A stretch of 64,000 nucleotides of DNA from contig CAXBMA010000008.1 of the NCBI GenBank assembly GCA_963976855.1, forward strand, positions 1,911-65,910, in the 5' to 3' direction. This stretch comes from an uncultured Aureibaculum sp. (lineage in GTDB: Bacteria > Bacteroidota > Bacteroidia > Flavobacteriales > Flavobacteriaceae). Positions within the stretch are counted from its first letter, which is position 1, and each line of letters starts with the position of its first letter. Under the pieces are notes generated by a model that did not search any database, was not told the origin of the DNA, and was given only the letters and a program-made list of their open reading frames with translations. This document shows, piece by piece, positions 42,808-60,947 of the stretch. The position numbers were made by a program, and so were the translations under genes.

Positions 42808-43443
42808 ATGTTACAAGAAAAGTTAAACACCTATTTTAAAACGATTTTCGAGGATGATTTGATACAAGAAATTGGTCAATTCGGAACGTATCAAAAGGTA
42901 ACTAAAAATGATTTGTTGATAGATATCGGCGAAAAGTTTGATAAAATTCCATTGGTGTTAAAAGGGGCTATAAAAATAAGTAGAGAAGACGAAAATGGTG
43001 ATGAAATTATATTGTATTTCTTAGAAGAGGGCGATACTTGCACTGTTACTTTTGGCAGTGGATTGGGTGATACTAAAAGTATGATACGAGGCACCGCAGA
43101 AAAAGACTCAGAGATTATTTTTATTCCAGTTGAAAAGCTAGAGGAATGGTTAGTTAGCTATAAATCTTGGCGAAAATTTGTGATTGATAGTTATAATTTT
43201 CGATTGTCTGAAATGCTCGAAACCATCGATACTTTGGCATTTATGAAAATGGATCAGCGCCTGTTTAAGTACCTTTCCGACAAGGTGAAAATAATGAACA
43301 GTCCCTCATTAACGACTACACATCAAGAAATTGCTCAAGATTTGAATACTTCTAGAGTTGTGATCAGTAGACTGCTAAAACAACTTGAAAATGAAAAGAA
43401 GATTCAACTATATAGAAATAGAATAGAAGTTCTTGCTGAGTAA
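42808..43443 (+). CDS. Crp/Fnr family transcriptional regulator
   Basis: cNMP-like N-domain; C-terminal HTH THQEIAQDLNTSRVVISRLLKQLE. Confidence 0.92.
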   Translation: MLQEKLNTYFKTIFEDDLIQEIGQFGTYQKVTKNDLLIDIGEKFDKIPLVLKGAIKISREDENGDEIILYFLEEGDTCTVTFGSGLGDTKSMIRGTAEKDSEIIFIPVEKLEEWLVSYKSWRKFVIDSYNFRLSEMLETIDTLAFMKMDQRLFKYLSDKVKIMNSPSLTTTHQEIAQDLNTSRVVISRLLKQLENEKKIQLYRNRIEVLAE

Positions 43444-43482
43444 CAATTGTTGCACTGGAACTTTAAGATTTAACTAATTTCG
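43440..43482 (+). promoter_or_regulatory. Candidate Crp/Fnr box (GTAACAATTGTTGC) plus -7 promoter element (TAATTTCG) of the yeeE operon
   Basis: Near-palindrome at 43440-43453 centred 28.5 nt before the -7 element at 43475; same geometry as at 55615. Confidence 0.62.
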
Positions 43483-43502
43483 CAACCAAATACTTATAAA
43501 AT

Positions 43503-44063
43503 ATGGACTTTATTTCACAACCATGGCCGTGGTATGTTGCCGGCCCAATGATATCACTAGTGTTATTTTTACTTTATTATTTAGGGAAATCATTTGGGGT
43601 ATCTTCAAATTTAGAAACACTATGTGCCTTAGGTGGTGCGGGTAATTTTTCAGACTATTTTAAATCGCTTGACTGGCGAAAGAACAGTTGGAATTTACTA
43701 TTTATTATAGGCGCTATTTTGGGTGGTTTTATTACCTATCAATGGCTAACACCAACAGAGCAAATTGCTTTAAATCCTCAAACAATTGAGGACTTGAGAG
43801 AAATCGGATTTCAGAATGCGGGTGCTCAATACTTGCCCGATGAAATTTTTGGTATGGATGCCTTGTTTTCTATAAAAGGATTGATCCTGCTACTTGTTGG
43901 AGGAGCACTCGTGGGATTTGGTGCACGATACGCCGGTGGTTGTACTTCTGGACACGCCATTGTTGGCTTGAGTAATCTAGAATTACCATCTTTAATATCC
44001 GTAATAGGATTTTTTATAGGAGGCTTACTAATGACATGGATAATTTTACCCTTACTATTTTAG
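43503..44063 (+). CDS. YeeE/YedE family sulfur-compound transporter subunit
   Basis: WPWYVAG, FGVSS, GFGARYAGGCTSGH. Confidence 0.88.
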   Translation: MDFISQPWPWYVAGPMISLVLFLLYYLGKSFGVSSNLETLCALGGAGNFSDYFKSLDWRKNSWNLLFIIGAILGGFITYQWLTPTEQIALNPQTIEDLREIGFQNAGAQYLPDEIFGMDALFSIKGLILLLVGGALVGFGARYAGGCTSGHAIVGLSNLELPSLISVIGFFIGGLLMTWIILPLLF

Positions 44064-44066
44064 ACG

Positions 44067-44480
44067 ATGAAAAAACTTAAATTTTTAGCAGTAGGAATAC
44101 TTTTTGGAATAATATTAAGCAAGGCTGAAGTTATTTCATGGTATCGAATTTATGAAATGTTCAAATTTCAATCATTTCATATGTATGGCGTTATTGGTTC
44201 GGCCGTTTTTTTCGGAATCATTTTAATGTATTTGTTTAAAAAAGGAGCCATTAAAACGTATACAGGAGAACAAATTAGAATAGCCCCTAAAAGAAAAGGT
44301 TTTACACGTAACATCCTTGGAGGAACCATTTTTGGTTTGGGTTGGGCTTTGGCAGGCGCATGTCCAGGGCCGATGTTTATTTTATTGGGCCGAGGTGCTT
44401 TTGCCATTAGCGTTGTTATTTTAGGAGCTTTACTAGGTGCGTTTTTCTATCATGCAGTTAAAAACAAAATCCCACATTAA
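44067..44480 (+). CDS. YeeE/YedE family sulfur-compound transporter, second half-size subunit
   Basis: SWYRIYEMF, FHMYGVIG, GLGWALAGACPGP. Confidence 0.85.
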   Translation: MKKLKFLAVGILFGIILSKAEVISWYRIYEMFKFQSFHMYGVIGSAVFFGIILMYLFKKGAIKTYTGEQIRIAPKRKGFTRNILGGTIFGLGWALAGACPGPMFILLGRGAFAISVVILGALLGAFFYHAVKNKIPH

Positions 44481-44528
44481 TTCCGTCGTTTTTCTTTTGT
44501 AACTTGCAGCTTATTCTAAGAAAATTCA

Positions 44529-45524
44529 ATGCAAGGTTTAACAGATCAATTTGGACGACAAATTACTTATTTAAGGTTGGCGGTTACTGACCGTTGTAAC
44601 TTGCGTTGTCAGTATTGTATGCCGGCGCATGGTATTGATATCGTCGATAGAAAAGAACTGTTGACCTTTAAAGAAATGTACCGAATCACACGTGTTTTAA
44701 GTGAGTTGGGTGTGGATAAAGTCCGTTTAACGGGAGGTGAACCTTTTGTGCGGAAAGATTTCATAAAGTTTTTAGAGATGTTATCATTCAATGATCAACT
44801 AGAAGAAATAAACATTACTACAAACGGCGCATTAATCGTTAATCACATTCCCAAATTAGAGGCATTAAAAATAAAAACCATCAATTTAAGTATTGATAGT
44901 TTAAATAAAGACAATTTTTCAGCCATTACCCGTCGAGATGTATTTGATGAGGTTTATAAAACCTTGGAAGCTTTAGAACAAAGCACTTTAAAACTAAAAT
45001 TGAATTGTGTAGTTCAGTCAGGGGTAAATACCCATGAATTGATTGACTTTATTGAACTCACAAAAAATAAGGATTTGGCAGTTCGTTTTATTGAGGAAAT
45101 GCCGTTTAACGGTACGGGTCAAAGAAACACAAAAGAGGTGTGGAATTACACTAAAATTTTAGACACCATTCAATCACACTATAAAGAAATTGTGCCTTTA
45201 AAGAGTGATAAGTCATCTACTTCACATAATTTTAAAATTGACGGTTATAAAGGGGCTTTCGGAATTATCCCGGCATTTACACGTACTATTTGTGGTGACT
45301 GCAATCGGATAAGGATTACTTCAACAGGCCTTTTTAAGAATTGCTTGTTTGACGAAGGTGTTTTTAATGTACGCGACTTTATGCGTAATGGGGCAAGTAA
45401 TGACGATTTGAAACAATTATTTTTGTCTATAGTAAAGGAAAAACCTGAAAATGGTTTTATCGCAGAAGCGAATCGAAAAAAGAACAAAAAGGTTTCTGAA
45501 AGCATGTCTACTATTGGAGGTTAA
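44529..45524 (+). CDS. moaA: GTP 3',8-cyclase
   Basis: Radical SAM CNLRCQYC, LTGGEP, CGDCNRIR, C-terminal IGG. Confidence 0.96.
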   Translation: MQGLTDQFGRQITYLRLAVTDRCNLRCQYCMPAHGIDIVDRKELLTFKEMYRITRVLSELGVDKVRLTGGEPFVRKDFIKFLEMLSFNDQLEEINITTNGALIVNHIPKLEALKIKTINLSIDSLNKDNFSAITRRDVFDEVYKTLEALEQSTLKLKLNCVVQSGVNTHELIDFIELTKNKDLAVRFIEEMPFNGTGQRNTKEVWNYTKILDTIQSHYKEIVPLKSDKSSTSHNFKIDGYKGAFGIIPAFTRTICGDCNRIRITSTGLFKNCLFDEGVFNVRDFMRNGASNDDLKQLFLSIVKEKPENGFIAEANRKKNKKVSESMSTIGG

Positions 45525-45529
45525 ATGAT

Positions 45530-46759
45530 ATGATTACATCACAACAAGCATTAGATATTATATTAAGTAACGCTCAAGATTTTGGTAGTGAAGAAATTTC
45601 TTTTACCAAATCACAGGGTCGCACCTTAAAAGAGGATATCAAAGCCGATAGAGATTTTCCTCCTTTTAATAGAGTGAGTATGGACGGAATAGCGATTTCT
45701 TATAAGGCTTTCACGGAAGGAAGAAGAGATTTTAGAATCGAAAATATTCAAGCCGCAGGTAGTGAACAGTTAGCATTAAAAAATGAAGCAAACTGTATCG
45801 AAGTGATGACAGGGGCTGTAGTTCCAAAAAATACAAATGCAGTCATCAGATATGAGGATTTAATTATTGAAAATGAAGTTGCCACCATTGGTGTTGAGAC
45901 AATTAGCAACCATCAAAATATCCATGAACAGGGGAAGGATCGAAAAGAAGGCGATGTGTTGATTAAAAAAAACAAAATTATTTCTGCTGCTGAAATAGGC
46001 GTGTTGGCAACGGTAGGGAAATCTATGGTTACTGTAGCAAAACAACCAAAAGTACTTATTATTTCTACTGGAGATGAGTTGGTTGAAGTTGCTGAAAAAC
46101 CATTGTCATATCAAATTAGAAGAAGTAATGTACATACGTTGGTTTCATTATTAGAACGATTGCAGCTAAAAGCAGATTCCGTTCATTTACCAGATGATAA
46201 ACCGTTGTTAAAAGAAAAAATAGCGCAGCAATTAATTACCTATGACGTGCTTCTTTTTAGTGGTGCTGTTAGTAAAGGGAAATTCGATTTTTTACCTGAA
46301 GTATTGGAAGAGTTAGGGGTAAAGAAACAATTCCATAAGGTAAAACAACGCCCAGGAAAACCATTCTGGTTCGGGACCTTTGAGCCATTGACTGAAAGTG
46401 AACGTACTGAAAAAAAGGAGATGAAAACAGTGGTTTTTGCTTTCCCAGGAAATCCGGTTTCAACTTTTGTTGGCTGCCTTAACTATTTTTACCCTTGGTA
46501 CAAGAAATCGATTGGTGTGGTTTATAAAAATTATGACAAGGCCATTTTAGCAAAGGATGTGAGTTTTAAACCAGACTTGACCTACTTTTTACAGGTCCAA
46601 TTAGAAAATAGAAAAGGTTTGTTGGTTGCGGTACCAGTAACAGGAAATGGCTCTGGAGATTTGGCTAATTTAGTCAATGTAGATGCTTTTTTAGTGCTAC
46701 CAAACAACCAAACAGATTTTAAAACGGGAGGGGCATATCCTATAATTAAATATAGATAA
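45530..46759 (+). CDS. moeA: Molybdopterin molybdotransferase
   Basis: PPFNRVSMDG, VMTGA, STGDEL, GAVSKG, QRPGKP, FPGNPVS, GSGD. Confidence 0.94.
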   Translation: MITSQQALDIILSNAQDFGSEEISFTKSQGRTLKEDIKADRDFPPFNRVSMDGIAISYKAFTEGRRDFRIENIQAAGSEQLALKNEANCIEVMTGAVVPKNTNAVIRYEDLIIENEVATIGVETISNHQNIHEQGKDRKEGDVLIKKNKIISAAEIGVLATVGKSMVTVAKQPKVLIISTGDELVEVAEKPLSYQIRRSNVHTLVSLLERLQLKADSVHLPDDKPLLKEKIAQQLITYDVLLFSGAVSKGKFDFLPEVLEELGVKKQFHKVKQRPGKPFWFGTFEPLTESERTEKKEMKTVVFAFPGNPVSTFVGCLNYFYPWYKKSIGVVYKNYDKAILAKDVSFKPDLTYFLQVQLENRKGLLVAVPVTGNGSGDLANLVNVDAFLVLPNNQTDFKTGGAYPIIKYR

Positions 46760-47248
46760 ATGAGTAATTTTTCACATATAAACAAAGACAATCAACCAAA
46801 AATGGTACATGTTGGTGATAAGGAAGTAACCAAAAGAATGGCAACAGCAAGTGCGGAGCTATTTTTAGGAAAGGAAATTGTCTTACATTTTACCAATAAT
46901 GAAATTGTGACCAAAAAGGGGCCCGTTTTTCAAACTGCTATTATTGCCGGAATTCAAGCAGTAAAAAAGACAGCCGACTTAATTCCGATGTGCCACCCTT
47001 TACTCATAAACGGTGTAGATATTACAATTGATGTAATAGATGCTACCCAGGTAAAAATTATATGCACAGTAGAAGTTGACGGCAAAACTGGGGTTGAAAT
47101 GGAAGCGCTTACAGGTGCTTCAGTTGCAGCATTAACTATTTACGATATGTGTAAAGCCTTGTCTAAAGAAATAATAATCAAAGCCGTGAAGCTGGTAGAA
47201 AAAACGGGCGGAAAATCGGATTATAAAATCGATGACAATGGAAATTAA
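46760..47248 (+). CDS. moaC: Cyclic pyranopterin monophosphate synthase
   Basis: MVHVGDK, AGIQAVKKT, LIPMCHP, TGVEMEAL, YDMCKA, KTGGKS. Confidence 0.96.
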   Translation: MSNFSHINKDNQPKMVHVGDKEVTKRMATASAELFLGKEIVLHFTNNEIVTKKGPVFQTAIIAGIQAVKKTADLIPMCHPLLINGVDITIDVIDATQVKIICTVEVDGKTGVEMEALTGASVAALTIYDMCKALSKEIIIKAVKLVEKTGGKSDYKIDDNGN

Positions 47249-48359
47249 AAAACATCAAAAACACACTCAATTAATTCGTAGAGAAAATGATCATTTCGCT
47301 CCAAACGAAATTTCCATTTTAGGTGTAAAATGTTCGATAATTAGTGATTTAGTTCAAAAAATAGGTAAAAAACTTCAAAAAACGTCAAATTTAGCATATT
47401 TAGATGCTTCGCATTCCGAAGCGCTTCAAGCGCCAATTGTAGATGTGTTTACAACGCACCATTCAGGCATTTTAAACACCAATAGTACTACAGAGTTGAA
47501 TGCCTATAATGAACGCATTCGTTTTGCTGCTTATGACCTCTTGTTAATTAATGGAAATCATTTTAAAGGGGACAAACAAATCTTAATTCTAGATAATGAA
47601 AAAGAAGCTTCGGTTAAGAAACGTTTAGATCAATTAGATAGAATACAGTTTGTTATTAAGTTGCATGAAGATGCAAAATATTTTGACTTTTTAGTTGAAA
47701 AACACCCAACCATTAAAAACTTGAGATGCTATCATATTGATGAAATTGATAAAATAGCAAGGCATATTGAAAATTTAATTCAAGAAAAAATCGCTCCCGT
47801 TAAGGGCTTGGTTTTAGCCGGAGGTAAAAGCACCAGAATGGGTGCTAATAAAACGATGCTTAATTATCATGGAACATCGCAGTTGAACTATGCCACTGAA
47901 CTATTGGAACACAATTTATTGGAAACCTATATTTCTGTTGGTCTCGATCAAGATACTGAATCAAAGGCATTTATAAAAGACAGCTTTTTTAATTTAGGGC
48001 CTTTTGGTGCAATATGCTCTGCATTTCGGTTTGACCCCAATAAAGCATGGTGTGTTTTGGCAACTGATTTACCATTTGTAACTGATGATTTGATTAAATT
48101 ACTGTTGCAAAAACGAAACCCAAAAAAAATAGCAACGGCTATAAAAGGGAAATCTAAAGAATTTGTAGAGCCATTAATTACTATTTACGAGCCAAAAGCT
48201 TATCCTGTTTTATTAAGTTATTTGGCACAAGGATATGCGTGCCCTAGAAAAGTATTGATCAATTCAGATGTAGAAATTGTAGAAGTTGACGATGTTTTGA
48301 TTCAGAATATAAACACGCCCGAAGAATTTGAAGAAGCCATCAAAAAAATTAATAAGTAA
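47232..48359 (+). CDS. MobA-like NTP transferase (Moco guanylyltransferase) with a ~185-aa N-terminal extra domain
   Basis: C-terminal half: GLVLAGGKSTRMG, GPFGAI, ATDLP, EPL, NINTPEE. Confidence 0.82.
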   Translation: MTMEIKKHQKHTQLIRRENDHFAPNEISILGVKCSIISDLVQKIGKKLQKTSNLAYLDASHSEALQAPIVDVFTTHHSGILNTNSTTELNAYNERIRFAAYDLLLINGNHFKGDKQILILDNEKEASVKKRLDQLDRIQFVIKLHEDAKYFDFLVEKHPTIKNLRCYHIDEIDKIARHIENLIQEKIAPVKGLVLAGGKSTRMGANKTMLNYHGTSQLNYATELLEHNLLETYISVGLDQDTESKAFIKDSFFNLGPFGAICSAFRFDPNKAWCVLATDLPFVTDDLIKLLLQKRNPKKIATAIKGKSKEFVEPLITIYEPKAYPVLLSYLAQGYACPRKVLINSDVEIVEVDDVLIQNINTPEEFEEAIKKINK

Positions 48360-49199
48360 TTGCAAAATACACTTCACATCTTAAATGGTGATAGCACCAC
48401 TAACGGCATTGAAAAAGGCGGGATTGGCGGCGATACTATTATTTGGCGAGAAATGCTTGTTGAAGGACCGTTACATCAAGATATTGGTAGTGATGCATTT
48501 TGGTTGCAACGATATTCATTTTTTGAGAATGAATTCGGTGTTTCTAAAATAGATTATTATGATAAAACCATCAAAGAATTAGTTCGAATAGAAGATTTAT
48601 CCGACTATAATGAGGTGGTTTTGTGGTTTGAATTCGATTTGTTCTGTCAGATAAACTTAATAGCGCTTTGCACTTATTTATTACAATCGTATAGAAAGGA
48701 TATTAATTATTATTTAGTGTGTACCGGTAAGGTGAAAGGAGAAAAGCAACTACGATCATTGGCCGATTATGCATCAAATGAATATCCTGAATTATTCGAA
48801 AATAGAATTAAACTTTCAAGACACAATTTGTTGTATGCGCAGCAATGTTGGAATGTATATGTTGCAAATAACCAGGAAGAATTGGCGCAATTTAATTTTA
48901 ATAAAAGCGCAAAATTTAAGTACTTAAAACCAGCGATAGATCAGCATCTAAAACGATTTGCTCAAAAAAATGAGCTCAACCAAATAGACACTAAAATAGT
49001 AGAAATAATTCATGATGGAATTGGAGAAGAAAGGGCGATTGTAAAAGAATTACTGCGGTGGCAACAAGAAGAAACGGTATATGGTTTTGGGGATTTACAA
49101 TATTTTAAATATCTCGAAAATATGAAAACGTACTATACCATTAAAAATGAGAACTATAGCTTGAATGCTTTAGGAAGAACGATCATAAACAACATATGA
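48360..49199 (+). CDS. DUF1835 domain protein
   Basis: LHILNGD, WREML.EGP, LWFEFDLFCQ, GFGDLQY; TTG start abutting the upstream stop. Confidence 0.72.
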   Translation: MQNTLHILNGDSTTNGIEKGGIGGDTIIWREMLVEGPLHQDIGSDAFWLQRYSFFENEFGVSKIDYYDKTIKELVRIEDLSDYNEVVLWFEFDLFCQINLIALCTYLLQSYRKDINYYLVCTGKVKGEKQLRSLADYASNEYPELFENRIKLSRHNLLYAQQCWNVYVANNQEELAQFNFNKSAKFKYLKPAIDQHLKRFAQKNELNQIDTKIVEIIHDGIGEERAIVKELLRWQQEETVYGFGDLQYFKYLENMKTYYTIKNENYSLNALGRTIINNI

Positions 49200-50308
49200 A
49201 AATAACGAAGAAAGAACTATATAAACGTCAAACTACCTTAGCCGAAATAGGAGATCTCGGTCAAAAAAAATTGGTACAATCCAACGTTGTTATTGTTGGT
49301 TGTGGTGGTTTAGGAGGTGTAGCGGCTGTTTATTTGGCAGCTAGCGGGGTTGGTGTAATTCATTTGGTAGATTATGATGTGGTAGACGTTTCTAATTTAC
49401 ACCGGCAGGTATTTTATACACCGGCCGATGTTGGCAAACCAAAAGTGGAGGTGTTGGCGAATCATATTCGATCAATGACTCCTTTTGTTGCCGTACCTGT
49501 TTCCAATATGATGGTTAAAAAAAACAATGTAATCAAGATGCTTTCAAAAGCAGATTACGTGCTCGATTGTACCGATAGTTTACCCGTTAAATACCTGTTA
49601 AATGACGCTTGTATCTTACTAGACAAGCCGTTGATTTACGGATCACTCTATAAATATGACGGTTATGTAGCTAGTTTTAACATAAAAGATAAAAAGGGTG
49701 CGTTCAGCAGTAACTTGCGTGACGCATTTCCTGAAATATCTAAAGAAGCCATACCCAATTGTTCTGAAATAGGCACTTTAAATACAATCGTGGGTATTAT
49801 AGGTTTATTACAAGCGAATGAAGTGTTGAAATTGATAACAGGTATTGGAAAACCACTGATAAACGAATTGTTAATTTATAATAGTTTGGAGAATTCTCAG
49901 TACAAAATGAAATTGAAACCGCGAGACACATCTTATACTGAGCGTAAGCAACGAATTGCGAAACTTTTTGAAAGGGAAACTTATTTTGATGCTACTAATG
50001 AAGTACAAGATGAAGCCTTATTGATTTCGGCGGAAGTGTTACGGAAAAAATTATCATTTGGTGAAGCTACTTTGGGATTAAACATTATTTCGGTTATTGA
50101 AGATATGAAGATTCAGGTACCGTTTCACGTTCATAAAAAAATACCCTTATCACAGTTGAATGTTGAAGCGCTTAATTTTAATGAAGCGAATGAATATGTG
50201 ATTGTTTGTAACAAAGGGGTTTCAAGTTATATTGCAATGCAAAAAATTAAAGAAGTACATCCAGACCTGAAAGTGTTAAGTTTAAAAAACGGAATAACAA
50301 ATTACTAA
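49196..50308 (+). CDS. moeB: MoeB/ThiF family adenylyltransferase with C-terminal rhodanese-like domain
   Basis: VGCGGLG, DYDVVDVSNLHRQ, DCTDS, PNCSEIG; C-terminal IVCNKGVSS. Confidence 0.85.
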   Translation: MKITKKELYKRQTTLAEIGDLGQKKLVQSNVVIVGCGGLGGVAAVYLAASGVGVIHLVDYDVVDVSNLHRQVFYTPADVGKPKVEVLANHIRSMTPFVAVPVSNMMVKKNNVIKMLSKADYVLDCTDSLPVKYLLNDACILLDKPLIYGSLYKYDGYVASFNIKDKKGAFSSNLRDAFPEISKEAIPNCSEIGTLNTIVGIIGLLQANEVLKLITGIGKPLINELLIYNSLENSQYKMKLKPRDTSYTERKQRIAKLFERETYFDATNEVQDEALLISAEVLRKKLSFGEATLGLNIISVIEDMKIQVPFHVHKKIPLSQLNVEALNFNEANEYVIVCNKGVSSYIAMQKIKEVHPDLKVLSLKNGITNY

Positions 50309-52081
50309 ATGCAGCAAAATCCATTAGAATTTTATTTAGCAGAAAAAGTAAGGTTCGAGCAAACATCGGCAAAATTAAAAAAACAACTAACACTGTCTAG
50401 CACGATTAGATTACTTGCTTTTTTGGCAATTTGTTTCGGCTTGTACTTAACTTTCGGAAATATAAAAGCAATGATCGCTATAGGCGTATTTGGCTTTTTA
50501 GGCTTTTTATATTTAGTTTCTCGGCATTCAGATTTACAGTATAAGAAAGATGTGATTAGTAAATTAGTTGAGATTAATACAACAGAAATTAATGTCTTAA
50601 ATGGTGATTATTTATCTTTAGATACGGGTAGCGAATTTATAGACCCAACGCATTTTTATAGTTATGATATTGATTTGTTTGGCAGAGGCTCTTTTTTTCA
50701 ATATATCAATAGAACAGCTACAAAGGAGGGTAAAAAAGAGTTGGCTAATACCTTAACGGAAAACGAAATTTCTGAGATTAAATTGAAGCAAGAAGCCATC
50801 GATGAGTTGGCAAACAAACGCGTTTGGAGCCAACACTTCACGGCAATTGCTAGTTTGGTCAATGTGCAACATCCTGCCAAAGACATTATCAATTGGATAC
50901 ACCATTATAAACCTGTTTTTTCAAGTATTTTAACTGTTTTGCCGACCTTGTTTTCAGTCCTTTCATTAGTATTAATTGCACTGGTTGGTTTCGATTTGTT
51001 GCCTTTTAATATCGTGTTAGTTTGGTTTTTTATAGGTCTTGGAATTTCTATGTATTACGTTAAAAGAGTGAATGCTATTTATCAAAACGCAGATAATGCC
51101 AAAGATACTTTTAAGCAATATCACAAACTGTTGAATGAAATAGAAACCACTACATTTTCTTCAGAACTACTTAAAGAGAAGCAGACGTCAATTCAGTTAG
51201 AAACGAAAAAGGCATCAGTTATTTTCAGTTCATTTTCTAAAATATTAGACGCCCTAGATCAGCGTAATAATTTACTTATTGCCTTATTTGGAAATGCCTT
51301 TTTTTTACGAGATACACAGCAAGCTTATAAAGTAGAACAGTGGATTAAAACCTATGCTGCCAACGTGGAAAATTGGTTTGCCGTAATTGCTTTTTTTGAT
51401 GCACAAAATTCACTGGGAAATGTAAGATTCAATCATCCAAGTTATACTTTTCCCAAAATAAAACAAAATGAACAGGTTATCGCTGCAAAAAACTTGGGGC
51501 ATTGTTTGTTGAAAGAAAAACAACGGATTTGCAATGATTACACCATAGATAATCAGCAGTTTTTAATTATTACTGGAGCTAATATGGCAGGGAAGAGTAC
51601 TTTTTTGCGTACGGTTTCTTTATCGATTGTCATGGCCAATATTGGTTTGCCTGTTTGTGCTACTTCCTTTGAATATTCGCCTATTAAATTGATTACAAGT
51701 ATGCGAACTTCAGACTCGTTAGCGGATGATGAATCGTATTTCTTTTCTGAGCTGAAACGCTTAAAATTTATTGTAGAAGAAATTAAAACGGAAAACTACT
51801 TTATTATTTTGGATGAAATTTTAAAAGGTACAAATAGCACTGATAAAGCCATTGGGTCTAAAAAGTTCGTACAAAAATTAGTAGCTTCAAATTCAACAGG
51901 AATTATTGCCACCCACGATTTAAGTTTGTGTGAAATAGAAAAAGAGCTAACACAAATACAGAATTATTATTTTGATGCCGAAATCATCAATGATGAACTC
52001 CATTTTGATTATAAACTGAAAGATGGTGTGTGTAAAAATATGAATGCTTCGTTTTTATTAAAGAAAATGGAAATAGTCTAA
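50309..52081 (+). CDS. Membrane-anchored MutS-related ATPase (MutS domain V only)
   Basis: N-terminal and central TM segments; ITGANMAGKSTFLR, ESYFFSEL, LDEILKGTNS, IATHD; no mismatch-binding domain. Confidence 0.85.
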   Translation: MQQNPLEFYLAEKVRFEQTSAKLKKQLTLSSTIRLLAFLAICFGLYLTFGNIKAMIAIGVFGFLGFLYLVSRHSDLQYKKDVISKLVEINTTEINVLNGDYLSLDTGSEFIDPTHFYSYDIDLFGRGSFFQYINRTATKEGKKELANTLTENEISEIKLKQEAIDELANKRVWSQHFTAIASLVNVQHPAKDIINWIHHYKPVFSSILTVLPTLFSVLSLVLIALVGFDLLPFNIVLVWFFIGLGISMYYVKRVNAIYQNADNAKDTFKQYHKLLNEIETTTFSSELLKEKQTSIQLETKKASVIFSSFSKILDALDQRNNLLIALFGNAFFLRDTQQAYKVEQWIKTYAANVENWFAVIAFFDAQNSLGNVRFNHPSYTFPKIKQNEQVIAAKNLGHCLLKEKQRICNDYTIDNQQFLIITGANMAGKSTFLRTVSLSIVMANIGLPVCATSFEYSPIKLITSMRTSDSLADDESYFFSELKRLKFIVEEIKTENYFIILDEILKGTNSTDKAIGSKKFVQKLVASNSTGIIATHDLSLCEIEKELTQIQNYYFDAEIINDELHFDYKLKDGVCKNMNASFLLKKMEIV

Positions 52082-52130
52082 TAGAGCCATTAAAAATAAA
52101 ATTCACTATTTTCGCCAACAAAGGGGGGAA

Positions 52131-52784
52131 ATGGATAAAAGACTTAAGCAGAAACCGATGAACATCGTTAAGGTGGTATTATTCGGGCCTGAATCTACAG
52201 GTAAAACGACATTGGCAAATCAACTGGCATATCATTATCAAACAGTTTGGGCGCCTGAATATGCACGCGAATATTTACAGGAAAAATGGAATAATAAACG
52301 CCAGGTGTGTGAGCATGAAGATCTGTTACCCATCGCAATTGGTCAAATAAAACTGGAAAATAGATTGGCACAACGTGCAGATAAGGTGCTGATTTGTGAT
52401 ACTGATTTGTTAGAAACAAAAGTGTATTCAGAAGAGTATTATGATGGTTTAGTAGATTCTGAAATAGAAATTGCTGCTGAAAAAAATCAATATGATATTT
52501 ATTTATTGACGTCTATTGATATTCCTTGGAGATTTGACAGTATTCGTGATAAGCCCGGACAACGAGAAGAAATGTTTAAGGCCTTTGAAAATGCATTAAA
52601 AAAGTATAAAAAGCCATACGTTACGCTAAAAGGCAATGAAGAAACACGATTTAATAAGGCTGTAGCAGTTATAGACGATTTAATAGCAAAAAAAGAAAAT
52701 TTATTTAATTATTCGGAATCAGAAGATATCGTTATTACCAAAAGGAAAAGTTTGTTTAGTAAATTTTTTAGCGCTAGAGAGTAG
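52131..52784 (+). CDS. NadR-type kinase-like P-loop ATPase (AAA_28), paralog B
   Basis: LFGPESTGKTTL, EYAREY, CDTD, IPWRFDSIRD. Confidence 0.82.
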   Translation: MDKRLKQKPMNIVKVVLFGPESTGKTTLANQLAYHYQTVWAPEYAREYLQEKWNNKRQVCEHEDLLPIAIGQIKLENRLAQRADKVLICDTDLLETKVYSEEYYDGLVDSEIEIAAEKNQYDIYLLTSIDIPWRFDSIRDKPGQREEMFKAFENALKKYKKPYVTLKGNEETRFNKAVAVIDDLIAKKENLFNYSESEDIVITKRKSLFSKFFSARE

Positions 52785-52798
52785 CTCAATGCCTATTG

Positions 52799-53224
52799 TT
52801 ATGGTGTAGCATTCACCCAAACTTCACCATCTATAAAATGTTCTTTTTTCCAGATAGGCACTGTTTCTTTTAAGGTGTCAATGGCAAATTGACATGCCGC
52901 AAAAGCAGCTTTTCTGTGTGGAGAAGAAACGGCAATAATTACTGGAATATCACTAATTTGTAATGCCCCTGCAGCATGATGAATGGCAATATTTAAAATG
53001 TCAAAATCGGCCAAAGCCATTGTTGCAATTTTTTGCATTTCTTTAAGTGCCATCGCTTCATAGGTAGAAAAGTCGAGCAGCGTTACTTCCTTACCTTGGG
53101 TTTGGTTTCTAACGGTGCCAACAAACAAGGCAACCCCACCACAAGAAGCATCTTGAACAAAATCATAACAGTCTTGTAAATTCAACTTTTCAGCGGTTAT
53201 TTTTATAGAGCTATTTTCTGACAT
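52799..53224 (-). CDS. moaE: Molybdopterin synthase catalytic subunit
   Basis: GGVALFVGTVR, AVSSPHRKAAF, IDTLKETVPIWKKE. Confidence 0.95.
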   Translation of the reverse strand: MSENSSIKITAEKLNLQDCYDFVQDASCGGVALFVGTVRNQTQGKEVTLLDFSTYEAMALKEMQKIATMALADFDILNIAIHHAAGALQISDIPVIIAVSSPHRKAAFAACQFAIDTLKETVPIWKKEHFIDGEVWVNATP

Positions 53225-53291
53225 TTTTTAACTAAATTATATACAAAGTTAAGGAATCAGGTTGTACTTTTGCAGACGAAAATTTAAACGT

Positions 53292-53567
53292 ATGAAAAAC
53301 ACATTTAGAGTAGTAAGTGTATTAGAAGGACTGTCATATATTGTCTTACTTTTTATAGCAGTACCCATTAAATATTTAGGTGATGACGAATCGTATGTAA
53401 AAATGTTTGGGATGCCACATGGCTTGTTGTTTGTAGCCTACATCGTATTGGCATTTTTATTAAAAAGTGAACTGAACTGGAAGGCAAAAACCTTTTGGAT
53501 AATCTTGGCAGCCTCTATCATCCCTTTTGGGACATTTTATGTAGAAAAGAAATATTTAAGAAGCTAA
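53292..53567 (+). CDS. DUF3817 membrane protein
   Basis: FRVVSVLEGLSY, G.PHG.LF.AY, ASIIPFGTF; start at the second Met (53292). Confidence 0.78.
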   Translation: MKNTFRVVSVLEGLSYIVLLFIAVPIKYLGDDESYVKMFGMPHGLLFVAYIVLAFLLKSELNWKAKTFWIILAASIIPFGTFYVEKKYLRS

Positions 53568-53599
53568 ATTCTATTCATTGATTTTGTTCGTGTTGCTGG

Positions 53600-53842
53600 T
53601 TAACCCCCACTAACAGGTGGAATCAAAGCGATGACATCATTTTCTTTAACAATACAATTACCGTCGGCATACACTTCATTTACAGCAATTGAATAATTTT
53701 TAAAGGCATTTAATTTAGGGTGTAACTGTGCTAATTGTTGTCTCAAATTTGCTAGTGTAGTGCCCTCAGAAACAGCAAGGCTTATTGTACTACAATTCGC
53801 AACATCTCGAAGTATTCCAAAAAATAAAATATTTATTTGCAT
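53600..53842 (-). CDS. moaD: Molybdopterin synthase sulfur carrier subunit
   Basis: ILFFG, AVNE, IPPVSGG C-terminal Gly-Gly. Confidence 0.94.
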   Translation of the reverse strand: MQINILFFGILRDVANCSTISLAVSEGTTLANLRQQLAQLHPKLNAFKNYSIAVNEVYADGNCIVKENDVIALIPPVSGG

Positions 53843-53895
53843 AAAATCAAAGTTATTAAAATCTCTTACATTTGTGAGACCAAATAGTTAATTCT

Positions 53896-55611
53896 TTGAA
53901 AAAAATATTTCCAATACTAGATTGGTTACCTAATTACAAACTTTCTTATTTAAAAGGTGATTTATTTGCTGGGCTAACCGTTGGTGTTATTTTAATACCA
54001 CAAGGTATTGCTTATGCAATTATTGCTGGGTTACCACCAATATACGGGCTCTATACAGCATTGGTGCCGCAGTTAATGTATGCTATTTTTGGCACATCGC
54101 GTAAGCTCGCTACAGGTCCAATAGCCATAGATTCGTTAATTATAGCCGCAGGGGTATCAACACTAGCAACTGTTGAAAGTGAAAATTATATTGCCATGGT
54201 GTTAGCACTCACCTTAATGGTTGGTTGTATACAATTAATCCTGGGCCTTTTTAGGTTGGGATTTATAGTAAATTTTTTATCAAAACCAGTACTTACTGGT
54301 TTTGTGACTGCAGCCGCATTAATTATTAGTTTTAATCAGTTTAGAGGTTTGTTGCGTATTGATGCAGAACGCAGTAACCAAATTCAACATGTAGTACAAA
54401 ATGTGATTGCTAAGTTAAGTACCATTCATTGGAAAAGCTTTCTAATTGGGGGTGTTGCCATCATAATTATTTACGGACTTAAAAAAATCAACAGAAAAAT
54501 TCCTGGCCCTTTAGTTGTTGTTGTTTTGGGGATCTTGATTATGAAATGGTTTACAAACTATTTTGAAGGCGTTGAAATTGTAAAGACCATTCCCAAAGGC
54601 TTGCCTTCATTTGAGATTCCAGTACTAGATTATGCCTTATTTTTAAAACTATTGCCCTTTGCTTTAACCTTGGCTTTTACGGGTTTTTTACAAGGAATAT
54701 CTATAGCAAAGGCTCTAGATGAAGATAGTGAGGAACATAAATTAATTCCCAATAAAGAACTAATAGCCTTAGGCTTGGGAAATATGGTGGGGTCTTTATT
54801 TAGTTCATATACATCAACAGGCAGCTTTGCGAGGTCTGCGATTAATAAAGAAGTAGGCGCGCAAACAGCCATGTCAAATGTTTTTTCGGCATTGTTTATC
54901 TTATTAACCCTATTGTTTTTTACACCAATATTTTACTTTTTACCTAAAACGGTGTTGGCGGCTATTATTATAGCAGCTGTATTCGGACTGATCAATATAA
55001 AAGACATTCAGTTTTTGTGGAAAAGTAATAAAATGGATTTTGTGATGATGCTTGTTACTTTTATAATCACTTTGACGGTTGGGATTAAAGAGGGAATATT
55101 AGTAGGCGTATTAGTGTCAATTTTTGTCGTGATTTTTGAGACGTCTAGACCACATATCGCCATTTTGGGCAAAGTACCCGATACTACACACTTTTATAGA
55201 AATGTAAACCGATTTGATGATGTAGAAGTAATAGATGAAATATTAATTGTTCGTTTTGATGCGCGATTGTACTTTGCCAATGCCAGTTATTTTAAAGATA
55301 AAATAGCTGAATATGCTAAAACGAAACCGAAATTAAAACTAATAATTATTGATGCTGAGGTAATTAATAACATTGATAGTAGTGGTGTTTTGGTTTTAAA
55401 AGAAGTTATTGAAACCTATAATAAAAGAGGAGTAAAAATTTATTTCACAGGTATTAAGGGCCCTGTAAGGGATGCATTCGCTAGAAGTGAATTGATTGGT
55501 GAAATTGGATTGGAAAATTGCTTTATGAGTATTCAAGAAGGTGTCGATAACTATAAAAAAGGAAATATAGATTTTAAATATTCAAAATACATAAATCAGG
55601 CAAATAAGTAA
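53896..55611 (+). CDS. SulP family anion permease with STAS domain
   Basis: GDLFAGLTVG..IPQGIAYA..GLPPIYGLY, TGSFARSA, C-terminal STAS (FANASYF, DSSG); TTG start. Confidence 0.93.
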   Translation: MKKIFPILDWLPNYKLSYLKGDLFAGLTVGVILIPQGIAYAIIAGLPPIYGLYTALVPQLMYAIFGTSRKLATGPIAIDSLIIAAGVSTLATVESENYIAMVLALTLMVGCIQLILGLFRLGFIVNFLSKPVLTGFVTAAALIISFNQFRGLLRIDAERSNQIQHVVQNVIAKLSTIHWKSFLIGGVAIIIIYGLKKINRKIPGPLVVVVLGILIMKWFTNYFEGVEIVKTIPKGLPSFEIPVLDYALFLKLLPFALTLAFTGFLQGISIAKALDEDSEEHKLIPNKELIALGLGNMVGSLFSSYTSTGSFARSAINKEVGAQTAMSNVFSALFILLTLLFFTPIFYFLPKTVLAAIIIAAVFGLINIKDIQFLWKSNKMDFVMMLVTFIITLTVGIKEGILVGVLVSIFVVIFETSRPHIAILGKVPDTTHFYRNVNRFDDVEVIDEILIVRFDARLYFANASYFKDKIAEYAKTKPKLKLIIIDAEVINNIDSSGVLVLKEVIETYNKRGVKIYFTGIKGPVRDAFARSELIGEIGLENCFMSIQEGVDNYKKGNIDFKYSKYINQANK

Positions 55612-55614
55612 TTT

Positions 55615-55657
55615 GTGATAAATGTTACATTACATTGTCAATTACTGATTAACTTTG
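55615..55657 (+). promoter_or_regulatory. Candidate Crp/Fnr box (GTGATAAATGTTAC) plus -7 element (TAACTTTG) of the MBL-rhodanese operon
   Basis: TGTGA-N6-TTACA, one mismatch from the CRP consensus; centre 28.5 nt before the -7 element at 55650. Confidence 0.65.
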
Positions 55658-55675
55658 CCTAAAAATGTTGAAGAT

Positions 55676-57082
55676 ATGAATGTAGAACAGATTTATACAG
55701 GTTGTTTATCTCAAGGAGCTTATTATATTGAGAGTGACGGAGAAGTTGCAATTATTGACCCTTTGCGGGAGGTGGATCCTTATATCGAGAGAGTCGTAAA
55801 AGATAAAGCCAAGATTAACTATATTTTTGAAACCCATTTTCATGCCGATTTTGTGAGTGGACATGTGACTTTAGCTGAGAAAACCGGAGCTACTATTGTT
55901 TACGGACCCAATGCGGAAACCACTTATGATTCGTATGTGGCTAAAGATGGTGAAGTGTTTCAAATAGGAAAGATTACCATTACGGCATTGCACACACCTG
56001 GTCACACCATGGAAAGCACCACTTATTTATTAAAAGATGAAAACGGGAAAGATCACGCTATTTTTAGTGGAGACACCTTGTTTTTAGGAGATGTAGGCAG
56101 ACCTGATTTGGCACAGAAAGGAGCGATGACTCAAGACGACCTAGCAGGAATGCTCTATGATAGTTTGAGAACAAAAATAATGACCTTGGCCGATGATGTT
56201 ATAGTATATCCAGCACATGGAGCAGGTTCAGCTTGTGGTAAAAACTTGAGTAAAGAAACCGTGGGAACTATTGGTGAGCAAAAAAGAACCAATTATGCTT
56301 TACGGGCCGATATGTCTAAGAAAGAGTTTGTAAAAGAAGTGACAGATGGTTTATTGCCACCACCACACTATTTTCCTCTAAATGTGAAACTGAATAAGGA
56401 AGGTTATGAAAGTATAGATACGATTATAGATAAAGGTACAAAGGCGTTAAAGCCGGATGATTTCGAAAAAATAGCAAATGAGACTGACGCCTTGATTTTA
56501 GACGTACGTCATCAATCTGATTTTATTAAAGGCTTTATTCCACGTTCCATATTTATAGGTATTGATGGTGGGTTTGCCCCTTGGGTTGGTGCGTTAATTA
56601 AAGACATTACACAGCCTATTTTATTAGTAACTCCTGAAGGTAGAGAAGAAGAAACGGTTACACGTTTGTCGCGTGTTGGGTTTGATCATACCTTAGGATA
56701 CCTTGACGGAAGTTTTGAGTCTTGGAAAGAAGCTGGAAAAGAAATTGACACCTTAGAATCGATTGCACCAGCTAGTTTAGAAGCAAAGTTAAAGGAAGGA
56801 GCTATTTCGATATTCGATGTTCGTAAACCCGGTGAATATTCAAGTGAACATATTGTTGATGTACCTAACACGCCCTTAGATTATTTAAACAGTCATTTAT
56901 CGGAATTCCCTAAGAATAAACCGTTTTATGTACATTGTGCTGGCGGTTATCGTTCCGTGATAGCCTCGTCTATATTAAAAGCGAGAGGGTTTCACAATGT
57001 AGTTGATATTGCCGGAGGGTATGGAGCTATAAAAAATACTGGGATTAAGCGTACAGATTACGTTTGCCCTACAACACTCTAA
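55676..57082 (+). CDS. MBL-fold persulfide dioxygenase-like protein fused to rhodanese domains (CstB-like architecture)
   Basis: THFHADF, HTPGHT, GDVGRPDL, PAHGAGSACGK; C-terminal HCAGGYRS rhodanese loop; ATG at 55676. Confidence 0.85.
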   Translation: MNVEQIYTGCLSQGAYYIESDGEVAIIDPLREVDPYIERVVKDKAKINYIFETHFHADFVSGHVTLAEKTGATIVYGPNAETTYDSYVAKDGEVFQIGKITITALHTPGHTMESTTYLLKDENGKDHAIFSGDTLFLGDVGRPDLAQKGAMTQDDLAGMLYDSLRTKIMTLADDVIVYPAHGAGSACGKNLSKETVGTIGEQKRTNYALRADMSKKEFVKEVTDGLLPPPHYFPLNVKLNKEGYESIDTIIDKGTKALKPDDFEKIANETDALILDVRHQSDFIKGFIPRSIFIGIDGGFAPWVGALIKDITQPILLVTPEGREEETVTRLSRVGFDHTLGYLDGSFESWKEAGKEIDTLESIAPASLEAKLKEGAISIFDVRKPGEYSSEHIVDVPNTPLDYLNSHLSEFPKNKPFYVHCAGGYRSVIASSILKARGFHNVVDIAGGYGAIKNTGIKRTDYVCPTTL

Positions 57083-57087
57083 ATTAC

Positions 57088-57597
57088 ATGAAAACAATTT
57101 TCAGTTTTATTTTTATTGTAGGTCTAAATTTTAGTTGTTTTTCACAAACAAAAGTAGCGGAGCATATTTTGTCTCTTGACAGTCTTACTGATGCGCCAAC
57201 AGCAACAATTAATGATGTTGCATGGATAGCTGGTTTGTGGAAAGGCGAGGCCTTTGGAGGCGTCACGGAAGAAAATTGGAGCGCACCTTCAAATGGTTCT
57301 ATGATGGCGGCTTTCAAGGTATCTGCTGAAGGCAAGGTGCTATTCTATGAGTTAGAGATAATAAGAGAACTGGAAGGGTCTTTAATTTTACAGCTAAAAC
57401 ATTTTAATGGCGACTTAAAAGGTTGGGAAACGAAAGATGAAACAGTTGATTTTCCGTTGGTAAAAATTACGGAAAATACCGTTTATTTTGATGGAATGAC
57501 CTTTGATAAAATTTCTGAGAACGAAATGAATGTGTATGTGTTAATGCATGCAAAGGACGGAACAACCAGTGAAATGAAGTTCAATTATAAAAAATAA
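57088..57597 (+). CDS. Exported protein of unknown function (DUF6265-like)
   Basis: Signal peptide; WIAGLWKG, EENWSAP, LKHF; family from memory. Confidence 0.65.
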   Translation: MKTIFSFIFIVGLNFSCFSQTKVAEHILSLDSLTDAPTATINDVAWIAGLWKGEAFGGVTEENWSAPSNGSMMAAFKVSAEGKVLFYELEIIRELEGSLILQLKHFNGDLKGWETKDETVDFPLVKITENTVYFDGMTFDKISENEMNVYVLMHAKDGTTSEMKFNYKK

Positions 57598-57648
57598 AAG
57601 CTCCTCAAAAATGAGTCAATATTAAACACTTTAACTTATTTCAAACAG

Positions 57649-58074
57649 ATGAAAAAAACTAAATTAATTTTGTTAGTATCTATGGTGATACTGACTCTTT
57701 CATGTAAAAAGAATGAGGCACAAGTAACCAAAACTAAGTCGCAACAAGTGATTAGCGAAAAAGTTACAGCCGATGCTTTTAAAACAAAAGTAGAACAACA
57801 AGAAGTTCAATTGATAGATGTTAGAACACCAGAGGAATATTCGGAAGGCTATATTCAAAACGCTTTGAATATCAATATTTATGACAATGATTTTATAACC
57901 CAAATAAATAAACTAGATAAAAACAAACCAGTTTATTTGTATTGTAAGATGGGTGGTCGTAGTGCTAAAGCAGCTGAAAGATTAGAAATGGCGGGTTTTA
58001 CAAAAATATATGATCTTCAAGGAGGCTTTTCAAGTTGGCAACAAAAAGAATACCCAATAAGCACAAAAGAATAA
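57649..58074 (+). CDS. Rhodanese-like lipoprotein
   Basis: Lipobox TLS-C; IDVRTPEEY..GYI..A, YCKMGGRS active-site loop, DLQGGF..W. Confidence 0.88.
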   Translation: MKKTKLILLVSMVILTLSCKKNEAQVTKTKSQQVISEKVTADAFKTKVEQQEVQLIDVRTPEEYSEGYIQNALNINIYDNDFITQINKLDKNKPVYLYCKMGGRSAKAAERLEMAGFTKIYDLQGGFSSWQQKEYPISTKE

Positions 58075-58107
58075 AAAAAAGCCGATGATTTTCATCGGCT
58101 TTTTTTT
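58073..58107. terminator. Bidirectional intrinsic terminator
   Basis: A8-GCCGATGA-ttt-TCATCGGC-T8 between convergent genes. Confidence 0.92.
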
Positions 58108-60542: not shown

Positions 60543-60947
60543 CTACTCTAAATCAGGTTTTTTTCGTGTGTTTTTCTTTTCGGAAAGTTTCTTTTTCGAC
60601 TTTAGACGTTTTTTAATGGCTGTTTTGGTGGGTTTTGTAGCCTTTCTTTTTTTAGGAACATGTAGACCTGCTTTTATGACTTCTAAAAACCTGCTGATTG
60701 CAATTTCTTTATTCTTGTGTTGACTCCTACTTTCGTCACATTGTAATAACAGCACGTTTTCTTTGCTGAGTTTTGTAGCTAATTTTTTAGTGAGTAGTTG
60801 TTTTTGTTCCTCAGTTAATTCGTTAGAAATTTCGAGGTCAAAAGTCAATTCTATTTTTGAAGATACTTTATTAACGTGTTGCCCGCCGGCACCAGAGCTT
60901 CGAATCGCTTTAAAAGAAAGCTCTTTAATAAGGTTTTCTGTATTCAC
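60543..60947 (-). CDS. arfB: Alternative ribosome rescue factor (peptidyl-tRNA hydrolase)
   Basis: RSSGAGGQHVNKVSSK (GGQ), RSQHKNK, basic C-terminal tail; GTG start. Confidence 0.93.
   Translation of the reverse strand: MNTENLIKELSFKAIRSSGAGGQHVNKVSSKIELTFDLEISNELTEEQKQLLTKKLATKLSKENVLLLQCDESRSQHKNKEIAISRFLEVIKAGLHVPKKRKATKPTKTAIKKRLKSKKKLSEKKNTRKKPDLE

Follow-up and report, generated by a model that had tools for sequence, protein, structure and literature searches.

Persulfide and molybdenum cofactor genes without a molybdoenzyme in an uncultured Aureibaculum: a probable remnant of a PSRLC3/SoeABC-like supercluster

Why are genes for the handling of reactive sulfur interleaved with genes for making the molybdenum cofactor (Moco) at a locus where no enzyme that uses this cofactor is encoded? 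The question is raised by a cluster at positions 42808-58074 of a 64,000-nucleotide (nt) stretch of DNA (hereafter, the window) from an uncultured Aureibaculum sp. of the Flavobacteriaceae, whose assembly comprises 3.28 Mb in 24 contigs and is 98.7% complete. Window genes were identified from a listing of open reading frames (ORFs) together with Pfam and NCBIfam profile searches, and the sulfur and Moco genes named in an earlier note on this DNA were all recovered where it had placed them. Genes for a Crp/Fnr regulator, a DUF1835-like protein, a MutS-domain-V protein, an AAA_28 protein, a DUF3817 protein and a DUF6265 protein were added to its list. Its remark that neither a molybdoenzyme nor modA lies in the window was also borne out, as the profiles PF00384 and PF02738 matched only on other contigs and TIGR01256 and PF13531 matched nothing genome-wide.

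The cluster was compared at the level of the family (one genome from each of 60 other Flavobacteriaceae genera plus this genome; n = 61 genera), of the genus (25 species, i.e., this genome and 24 congeners) and of the phylum, where a scan for the enzyme described below gave at least 597 loci, of which 80 (33 Flavobacteriaceae-like and 47 others) were kept for neighbour counts. We consider it rather probable that the cluster is the remnant of a PSRLC3/SoeABC-like supercluster whose hinge enzyme was lost or replaced in this lineage, and that it would thus consist of two units once joined by this now-missing Psr/Soe-like enzyme.

A Psr/Soe-like enzyme at the moaD/sulP junction of relatives

In at least 11 congeners and other genera that otherwise match the window in gene order, three additional genes lie between moaD and sulP (loci L015, L016, L056-L059 and many of L061-L091). 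Of the other genera sampled, G058 and G035 have the architecture of the window, and both carry an enzyme gene pair and a second SulP gene at this junction. In these two and in the congeners G069, G077, G080, G061 and G076, moaE-(DUF3817)-moaD is followed by an FeS-NrfD fusion, a 963-aa molybdenum subunit, sulP2, sulP, dioxygenase and rhodanese, which is the order of the window plus three genes; the left flank of the congener loci reads kdtA-crp-yeeAB-moa. The first enzyme gene encodes a 538-aa fusion of a four-cluster ferredoxin (Fer4_11) and an NrfD anchor, and the second encodes a catalytic subunit of the DMSO-reductase family with Fe4S4, Molybdopterin and Molydop_binding domains, whose closest solved relatives are PsrA (2VPW) and ArrA. 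No twin-arginine (Tat) motif was found at the N-termini of the catalytic subunits in relatives. Searches of NCBIfam, a large protein database and the Lutibacter literature returned generic names only for this enzyme.

SoeABC is a cytoplasm-facing sulfite:quinone oxidoreductase, whose hallmark is an NrfD-anchored catalytic subunit that lacks a Tat signal (PMC8076601), and PSRLC3 has been described as an alternative sulfite-oxidising system in green sulfur bacteria (PMC6338057). The relatives' enzyme is like SoeABC and the two-gene PSRLC3 in its subunit of the bis-molybdopterin guanine dinucleotide (bis-MGD) type with an N-terminal Fe4S4 domain and no Tat signal, its four-cluster ferredoxin and its NrfD anchor (PMC8076601, PMC6338057), the latter two being fused in the relatives; it is likewise encoded with sulfur-oxidation genes. 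The likeness to SoeABC is one of architecture. Most likely, the relatives' enzyme would have oxidised to sulfate the sulfite that the neighbouring dioxygenase is expected to release. Unlike in those systems, the catalytic molybdenum subunit is absent here from both the window and the genome, no homologue of it being found anywhere in the assembly by tblastn or by the PF00384 search.

At the family level the enzyme is rare (2 of the 60 other genera sampled), and it occurs in 11 of the 24 congeners. Its neighbours are informative: 58 of the 80 loci examined phylum-wide also encode a homologue of the dioxygenase, SulP, YeeE or rhodanese of the window, and Moco genes stand beside it in 20 of 33 Flavobacteriaceae-like loci versus 4 of 47 others. 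These two linkages indicate that it is the enzyme which connects the two gene sets, and by gene order the enzyme-sulfur link is evidently old and broad, the enzyme-Moco link evidently a flavobacterial addition. Between genera in which the adjacent genes show 50-70% identity, the catalytic subunit shows 81-87%; as it is still 70-78% identical in other orders, this high identity suggests slow evolution.

Ten congeners have the SulP type of the window and no enzyme. Nine of them that were fetched (G062, G064, G065, G068, G070, G071, G072, G075 and G082) share the moaD-sulP-dioxygenase junction with 64-88% protein identity, and the sulfur-Moco arrangement is thus not a product of chance; G067 has the same SulP type. 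In a tree of the MutS-like protein and MoaE, enzyme-less species form two groups, each next to an enzyme-bearing congener (support 0.999 and 0.55), and every outgroup is enzyme-bearing. In the SulP tree, the sister group of the clade of the window (support 99) consists of SulPs whose genes come right after those of the enzyme, and not of the crp-sulP-dioxygenase type of other genera. Because the enzyme-less arrangement nests among enzyme-bearing lineages, loss or replacement of the enzyme is the course we favour for this lineage, as probable though well short of certain. Under this reading, moaD and sulP of the ancestor would have been separated by the genes for a Psr/SoeABC-like bis-MGD enzyme of the PSRLC3 type, facing the cytoplasm, and for a second SulP, the cofactor genes of the enzyme having been recruited beside it. 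Deletion or replacement of the enzyme pair and the second SulP may then have left sulfur and Moco genes adjacent with no molybdoenzyme.

One enzyme-bearing locus needs comment. At L058 (G069:C1:1030583-1050582), the genes for the molybdenum subunit, sulP2 and moeB have 3-5 in-frame stops each, which looks like a local assembly or frameshift error. Decay to a pseudogene was considered and rejected, since the stops are clustered in stretches of about 25 residues and are found in moeB too; they were not used as evidence for loss.

The persulfide module and its regulation

The features of the cluster, with the matches on which each assignment is based, are as follows.

42808-43443 (+): Crp/Fnr-family transcription regulator, predicted regulator of the sulfur module (cNMP_binding and HTH_Crp_2)
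43439-43454: weak operator-like palindrome AGTAACAATTGTTGCA before yeeA, overlapping the crp stop codon (2 mismatches to TGTrAy-N4-rTyACA)
43503-44063 (+): YeeE/YedE-family half A (yeeA), 186 aa, GGCTSGH motif (PF04143, weak TsuA match)
44067-44480 (+): YeeE/YedE-family half B (yeeB; DUF6691), 137 aa, GACPGP motif (PF20398 and PF04143)
44529-45524 (+): MoaA, GTP 3',8-cyclase (TIGR02666, 342 bits, above cut-off)
45530-46759 (+): MoeA, molybdopterin molybdotransferase (MoeA_N, MoCF_biosynth and MoeA_C)
46760-47248 (+): MoaC (PF01967; TIGR00581 above cut-off)
47232-48359 (+): N-terminal domain of about 190 aa fused to a MobA-type guanylyltransferase, residues 192-341 (NTP_transf_3)
48360-49199 (+): DUF1835-like protein (weak PF08874)
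49196-50308 (+): MoeB adenylyltransferase with C-terminal rhodanese-like domain, Cys338 in CNKGVSS (ThiF)
50309-52081 (+): MutS domain-V-only ATPase, 590 aa (PF00488)
52131-52784 (+): AAA_28/NadR-kinase-like protein, in closest congeners only (PF13521, synteny)
52799-53224 (-): MoaE (PF02391)
53262-53567 (+): DUF3817 small membrane protein, between moaE and moaD (PF12823)
53600-53842 (-): MoaD sulfur carrier, C-terminal GG (TIGR01682 at cut-off)
53843-53895: 53-nt moaD/sulP junction, insertion point of the three extra genes in relatives (synteny)
53896-55611 (+): SulP/STAS anion permease, predicted exporter of the dioxygenase's sulfur oxyanion (TIGR00815, 512 bits)
55614-55629: operator-like palindrome TGTGATAAATGTTACA (at most 1 mismatch to TGTrAy-N4-rTyACA)
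55676-57082 (+): CstB-like persulfide dioxygenase with metallo-beta-lactamase (MBL) domain, Cys-less rhodanese and catalytic rhodanese CAGGYRS (Lactamase_B and two Rhodanese stretches)
57064-57597 (+): DUF6265 protein, hydrophobic N-terminus, in closest congeners only (PF19780, synteny)
57649-58074 (+): single-domain rhodanese lipoprotein, lipobox LTLSC, loop CKMGGRS (PF00581)
58073-58107: strong bidirectional terminator hairpin at the cluster end (16-pair stem with T tracts)

The gaps between plus-strand genes across the cluster are tiny by the ORF listing, and the hairpin at 58073-58107 was the sole convincing terminator of the cluster in a terminator scan. The conserved neighbourhood reaches past 58074 to genes for a TonB-dependent receptor (58110-60293, -) and arfB (60543-60947, -); several other genera keep these two in this order after the rhodanese gene, with 50-70% identity.

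The first unit appears to be a persulfide module that is widespread in the Flavobacteriaceae and would comprise a Crp/Fnr regulator, a split YeeE channel, an anion exporter (SulP here, TauE elsewhere), a CstB-like dioxygenase and an exported rhodanese. Its central enzyme matched PDB entries 3TP9 (1e-64) and 3R2U (2.5e-52), the latter of which we take to be CstB, over the full length, as well as BpPRF and, over the MBL domain, persulfide dioxygenases of the ETHE1 type. Pfam placed Lactamase_B at residues 20-188, followed by two Rhodanese stretches. The metal-binding H-x-H-x-D motif (HFHADF, residues 61-66), a middle rhodanese domain without a Cys loop and a C-terminal one with the catalytic-type loop CAGGYRS indicate that the protein is CstB-like in architecture. 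By analogy with its family, the dioxygenase would oxidise persulfide sulfur to sulfite, and its rhodanese domain may turn sulfite and persulfide into thiosulfate; SulP, and possibly YeeE, would carry the oxyanion across the membrane.

The cst operon of Staphylococcus aureus consists of CstR, TauE, CstA, CstB and a sulfide:quinone oxidoreductase (SQR). It resembles the module in the dioxygenase-rhodanese with Cys-less middle and catalytic C-terminal rhodanese domains, in the adjacent anion exporter and in having a dedicated regulator, and differs in that the regulator here is of the Crp/Fnr type instead of CsoR-like, that SulP stands in place of TauE and that a split YeeE pair is added. It also includes an SQR, whereas no confident one was found here among the PF07992 proteins of the genome, whose candidates were rejected as none convincingly matched an SQR model. 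The YeeE pair shares PF04143 and the Cys-containing motifs GGCTSGH and GACPGP with the YeeE/TsuA channel, but the version in the window is split into 186 and 137 aa, the halves score 36.5 and 28.2 bits versus a TsuA cut-off of 400, and there is no YeeD/TusA-like partner gene in the interval, to which that search was limited.

The module is independent of Moco, as the dioxygenase-rhodanese occurs in 61 of 61 genera and YeeE half A in 53 of 61, mostly adjoining the dioxygenase, versus 38 of 61 for moaA. Half B invariably follows half A in relatives, the pair is also present in genera without moaA, the lipoprotein rhodanese lies 3' of the dioxygenase in many relatives, and Crp/Fnr-family orthologues (48-57% identity) precede YeeE/TauE/SulP-dioxygenase units in other genera. 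A SulP of the window type (Sulfate_transp PF00916, 382 bits; C-terminal STAS PF01740; TIGR00815 above cut-off) was found in 22 of 61 genera (this genome and 21 relatives). It stands directly upstream of and co-oriented with the dioxygenase in 19 of these relatives, among them G009, a genus that has no moaA. The canonical units among 20 fetched dioxygenase neighbourhoods are crp-yeeA-yeeB-TauE-dioxygenase and crp-sulP-dioxygenase, the slot upstream of the dioxygenase being taken by a TauE orthologue in eight, by SulP in nine and by both in none. From this adjacency and alternation, SulP is best read as the oxyanion exporter of the module and not as a Moco gene. In one congener (L060, G078:C75), crp directly precedes the enzyme operon, a tandem pair of dioxygenase paralogues comes next (58% and 71% identity with that of the window), and no moa genes are nearby.

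Of the 38 moaA-positive genera, only four have the dioxygenase and moaA less than 20 kb apart, and yeeA abuts moaA in only four. Sulfur and moa genes are thus unlinked in most relatives, and by the standard that the earlier note had set, its idea of a functional coupling of the two sets fails in this genome; a separate modABC, the other sign by which that note would have set the coupling aside, does not exist here. Its picture of a detoxification module feeding an unlinked molybdoenzyme holds in part. The persulfide/thiosulfate module is real and, in an evolutionary sense, tied to Moco by a molybdoenzyme; however, the partner would have sat in the same cluster, from which it is now absent, and the molybdoenzymes the genome does have are without a known sulfur substrate.

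Regulation also appears to separate the two sets. A 16-bp palindrome, TGTrAy-N4-rTyACA, redefined from relatives' sequences prior to counting, was scored with at most 1 mismatch within 120 nt upstream of each gene in all fetched loci. It precedes the dioxygenase in 50 of 87 loci, yeeA in 19 of 33, the enzyme operon in 20 of 75 and sulP in 25 of 75, and was found upstream of none of the moa genes counted (moaA 0/32, moeA 0/30, moaC 0/40, moeB 0/43 and moaE 0/43). The site at 55614-55629 is the only one of this quality in the 64-kb window and lies 41 nt before the dioxygenase start. After a further 20 nt comes TAACTTTG (55650-55657), a -7 box of the Bacteroidota type, and since TTG 55655 falls within this box, the dioxygenase probably starts at ATG 55676 instead. 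The palindrome before sulfur genes leads us to predict that the Crp-type protein of the cluster regulates the sulfur module, and together they appear to define a Bacteroidota persulfide regulon that includes the dioxygenase, the YeeE pair, SulP and the Psr/Soe-like enzyme. The classical CRP consensus TGTGA-N6-TCACA was not enriched across the window (24 sites versus 30 expected). A sigma-70 promoter scan, which is unsuited to Bacteroidota promoters, gave no more sites than shuffled sequences and was not used.

The cofactor block and its molybdoenzymes

The second unit, a Moco/bis-MGD block, begins directly downstream of yeeB, moaA starting 48 nt after it with no predicted terminator between. 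From this gap, we infer that the moa genes would be co-expressed with the sulfur genes only by read-through from yeeAB, probably from a yeeA promoter under control of the regulator. MoaA, MoaC, MoaD, MoaE, MoeB, MoeA and MobA are all present, with MoaA, MoaC and MoaD reaching curated cut-offs, and the description of the pathway as complete stands for these seven. It does not extend to a stand-alone MogA/MoaB, which was not found; besides MoeA, the genome has one PF00994 match, in a 423-aa ORF on contig 1. The MobA fusion aligned with the MobA/MobB-type model PRK14490 over residues 79-374, below its cut-off. Its N-terminal half aligns only to the N-terminal part of the model and is without an obvious P-loop, and the N-terminal 190 or so residues (47232-47810) had no Pfam match when searched alone. 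MoeB aligned with the MoeZ model over residues 8-353 (222 bits versus a cut-off of 647), and the Pfam Rhodanese match was not significant; it is like MoeZ/MOCS3-type proteins in that a rhodanese-like domain bearing a Cys loop comes after the ThiF domain, and unlike them in that this loop, CNKGVSS, is without the usual Arg.

Three further genes of the block are conserved. The DUF1835-like gene is kept by synteny across the genus and in Lutibacter-type loci, where the DUF3817 gene, as in congeners, has the same place between the divergent moaE and moaD. In 23 related moa blocks, the gene for the MutS-domain-V ATPase keeps its place between moeB and moaE, and a role of its product in cofactor handling is conceivable; the protein is weakly similar to the KamC reactivase ATPase.

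The block would be retained because three unlinked molybdoenzymes still need it. All three are encoded on contigs other than that of the cluster: a YdeP/FdhF-family oxidoreductase with FdhD on contig 1, which is the only PF00384 protein; XdhA/XdhB with XdhC; and an Ior-like enzyme (2Fe-2S and MoCoBD) with a gene for a MocA-like nucleotidyltransferase. Judged by family, none of these has a recognised sulfur substrate. Of the families that the earlier note had suggested looking for, YdeP/FdhF and xanthine dehydrogenase are thus present, and whole-genome searches of this assembly gave no sulfite-oxidase/YedY family protein (PF00174), no ModA (TIGR01256) and no PF13531 binding protein, and no confident SQR.

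The ModA component of ModABC is absent from this genome; its gene occurs in 6 of 61 genera and, within the genus, in one species out of 25. The window-type SulP is present alongside modA in each of those six genera, and 18 moaA-positive genera have neither. A TauE/SafE-family permease lies inside the operon in all 15 fetched moa clusters that are not of the window's type (L020, L022, L024 and L026-L034; also L021, L023 and L025), for example at L036:5168-5914 (-), and in the 12 'type C' clusters it adjoins a 109-aa protein with an HTH_1 (LysR-type) helix-turn-helix. A rice protein annotated as TauE was recently shown to transport molybdenum (PMC12227400), and the permease of the moa operons is a candidate bacterial molybdate transporter. 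This genome has five TauE paralogues, one of which lies on contig 11 (L005:5803-6519, +) at a distance of some 500 bp from the xdh operon, on its xdhC side; it could be the molybdate route of the organism, or its position could be due to chance.

Weighing the readings

Several points weigh against a lost or replaced hinge enzyme and its assumed role. One node, which joins the group of the window to an enzyme-bearing species, has a support of only 0.55, and the trees that bear on loss or gain are small and midpoint-rooted. Between the congener groups, SulP and the dioxygenase are 50-55% and 56-58% identical, versus 66-84% for moa genes, and the sulP-dioxygenase segment of enzyme-less species is a distinct, monophyletic sequence type. 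This weakens a simple model of clean deletion and suggests that the event may have been replacement of the segment, which then spread within the genus. Given that only 2 of the 60 other genera have the enzyme, lateral spread of the whole cluster may also have played a part. As to function, the catalytic subunit reached no NCBIfam equivalog at cut-off, its presumed sulfite substrate is drawn from architecture and linkage, and no confident SQR that might supply persulfide was found among the PF07992 proteins of the genome. As to regulation, the palindrome before the window's yeeA departs from the motif at 2 positions, and co-transcription of yeeAB and moaA is proposed only from a short gap of 48 nt with no terminator predicted in it. 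Some of the same observations would fit an accidental juxtaposition, in which a moa block that came without an enzyme ended up beside the sulfur module and other lineages only afterwards gained the Psr/Soe-like enzyme by insertion: few genera of the family have it, the sulP-dioxygenase segment of enzyme-less congeners is of a different and monophyletic type, and the catalytic subunit is more alike across genera than its neighbours are. We nevertheless regard an accident as improbable, as it needs repeated insertion at the same moaD/sulP junction in several genera. The linkages of the enzyme to moa genes (20 of 33 Flavobacteriaceae-like loci) and to sulfur genes (58 of 80 phylum-wide) and the nesting of enzyme-less species inside enzyme-bearing ones likewise argue against it, and the identity of 70-78% in other orders points to slow evolution of the catalytic subunit.

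The other two explanations would give the neighbourhood a present use. The earlier note had suggested that SulP doubles as a molybdate importer, and more generally SulP or the YeeE pair might have been recruited to this task in a lineage without ModABC, hence their place beside Moco genes. The lack of modA and PF13531 in the genome and the rarity of modA in the genus are in line with this, as are the position of sulP, divergent from moaD over a 53-nt gap, that of yeeB at 48 nt from moaA, and a moa block that is without the TauE permease carried by every other moa cluster type examined. Yet SulP is linked to the dioxygenase (19 of 21 genera) and takes the slot of a TauE sulfite-exporter homologue, with which it is interchangeable; G009 has the SulP-dioxygenase pair without moaA; the six modA-positive genera all keep SulP while 18 moaA-positive genera have neither; and the YeeE pair is linked to the dioxygenase in most genera and occurs in some without moaA. 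Recruitment as an importer is therefore quite unlikely. We hold similarly little belief in the related proposal that, after loss of the enzyme, SulP or the split YeeE was retained beside moaD/moaA as it also imports molybdate; were it true, this would be a prokaryotic molybdate transporter of the SulP or YeeE family under a Crp-type sulfur regulator. That note also raised thiocarboxylation of MoaD as the task of the sulfur genes, which would then be its dedicated supply line. This idea draws on the rhodanese domains and sulfur-anion channels that flank moaD, moaE and moeB within one 15-kb cluster, and we consider it very unlikely indeed. The module is universal in the family (61/61 and 53/61 genera), whereas Moco synthesis is not (moaA, 38/61), the rhodanese-like domain of MoeB itself has a candidate catalytic Cys, one of the rhodaneses is an exported lipoprotein, the dioxygenase destroys persulfide sulfur and so would be a poor donor, and none of the moa genes counted has the operator motif.

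With the loss or replacement of a hinge enzyme as the preferred reading, the cluster is most likely an ordinary leftover and not a new pathway, all its parts coming from known families, and the apparent paradox of cofactor genes beside sulfur genes with no enzyme is resolved by the connecting enzyme visible in relatives. Most marine Flavobacteriaceae would import molybdate by a route other than ModABC. The cluster also suggests that persulfide handling in Bacteroidota has a regulator of the Crp/Fnr type and an operator, both so far uncharacterised. Moreover, congeners with and without the Psr/Soe-like enzyme, their clusters being otherwise identical, offer a natural experiment that could probe the proposed role of the two-gene PSRLC3-type enzymes in sulfite oxidation.

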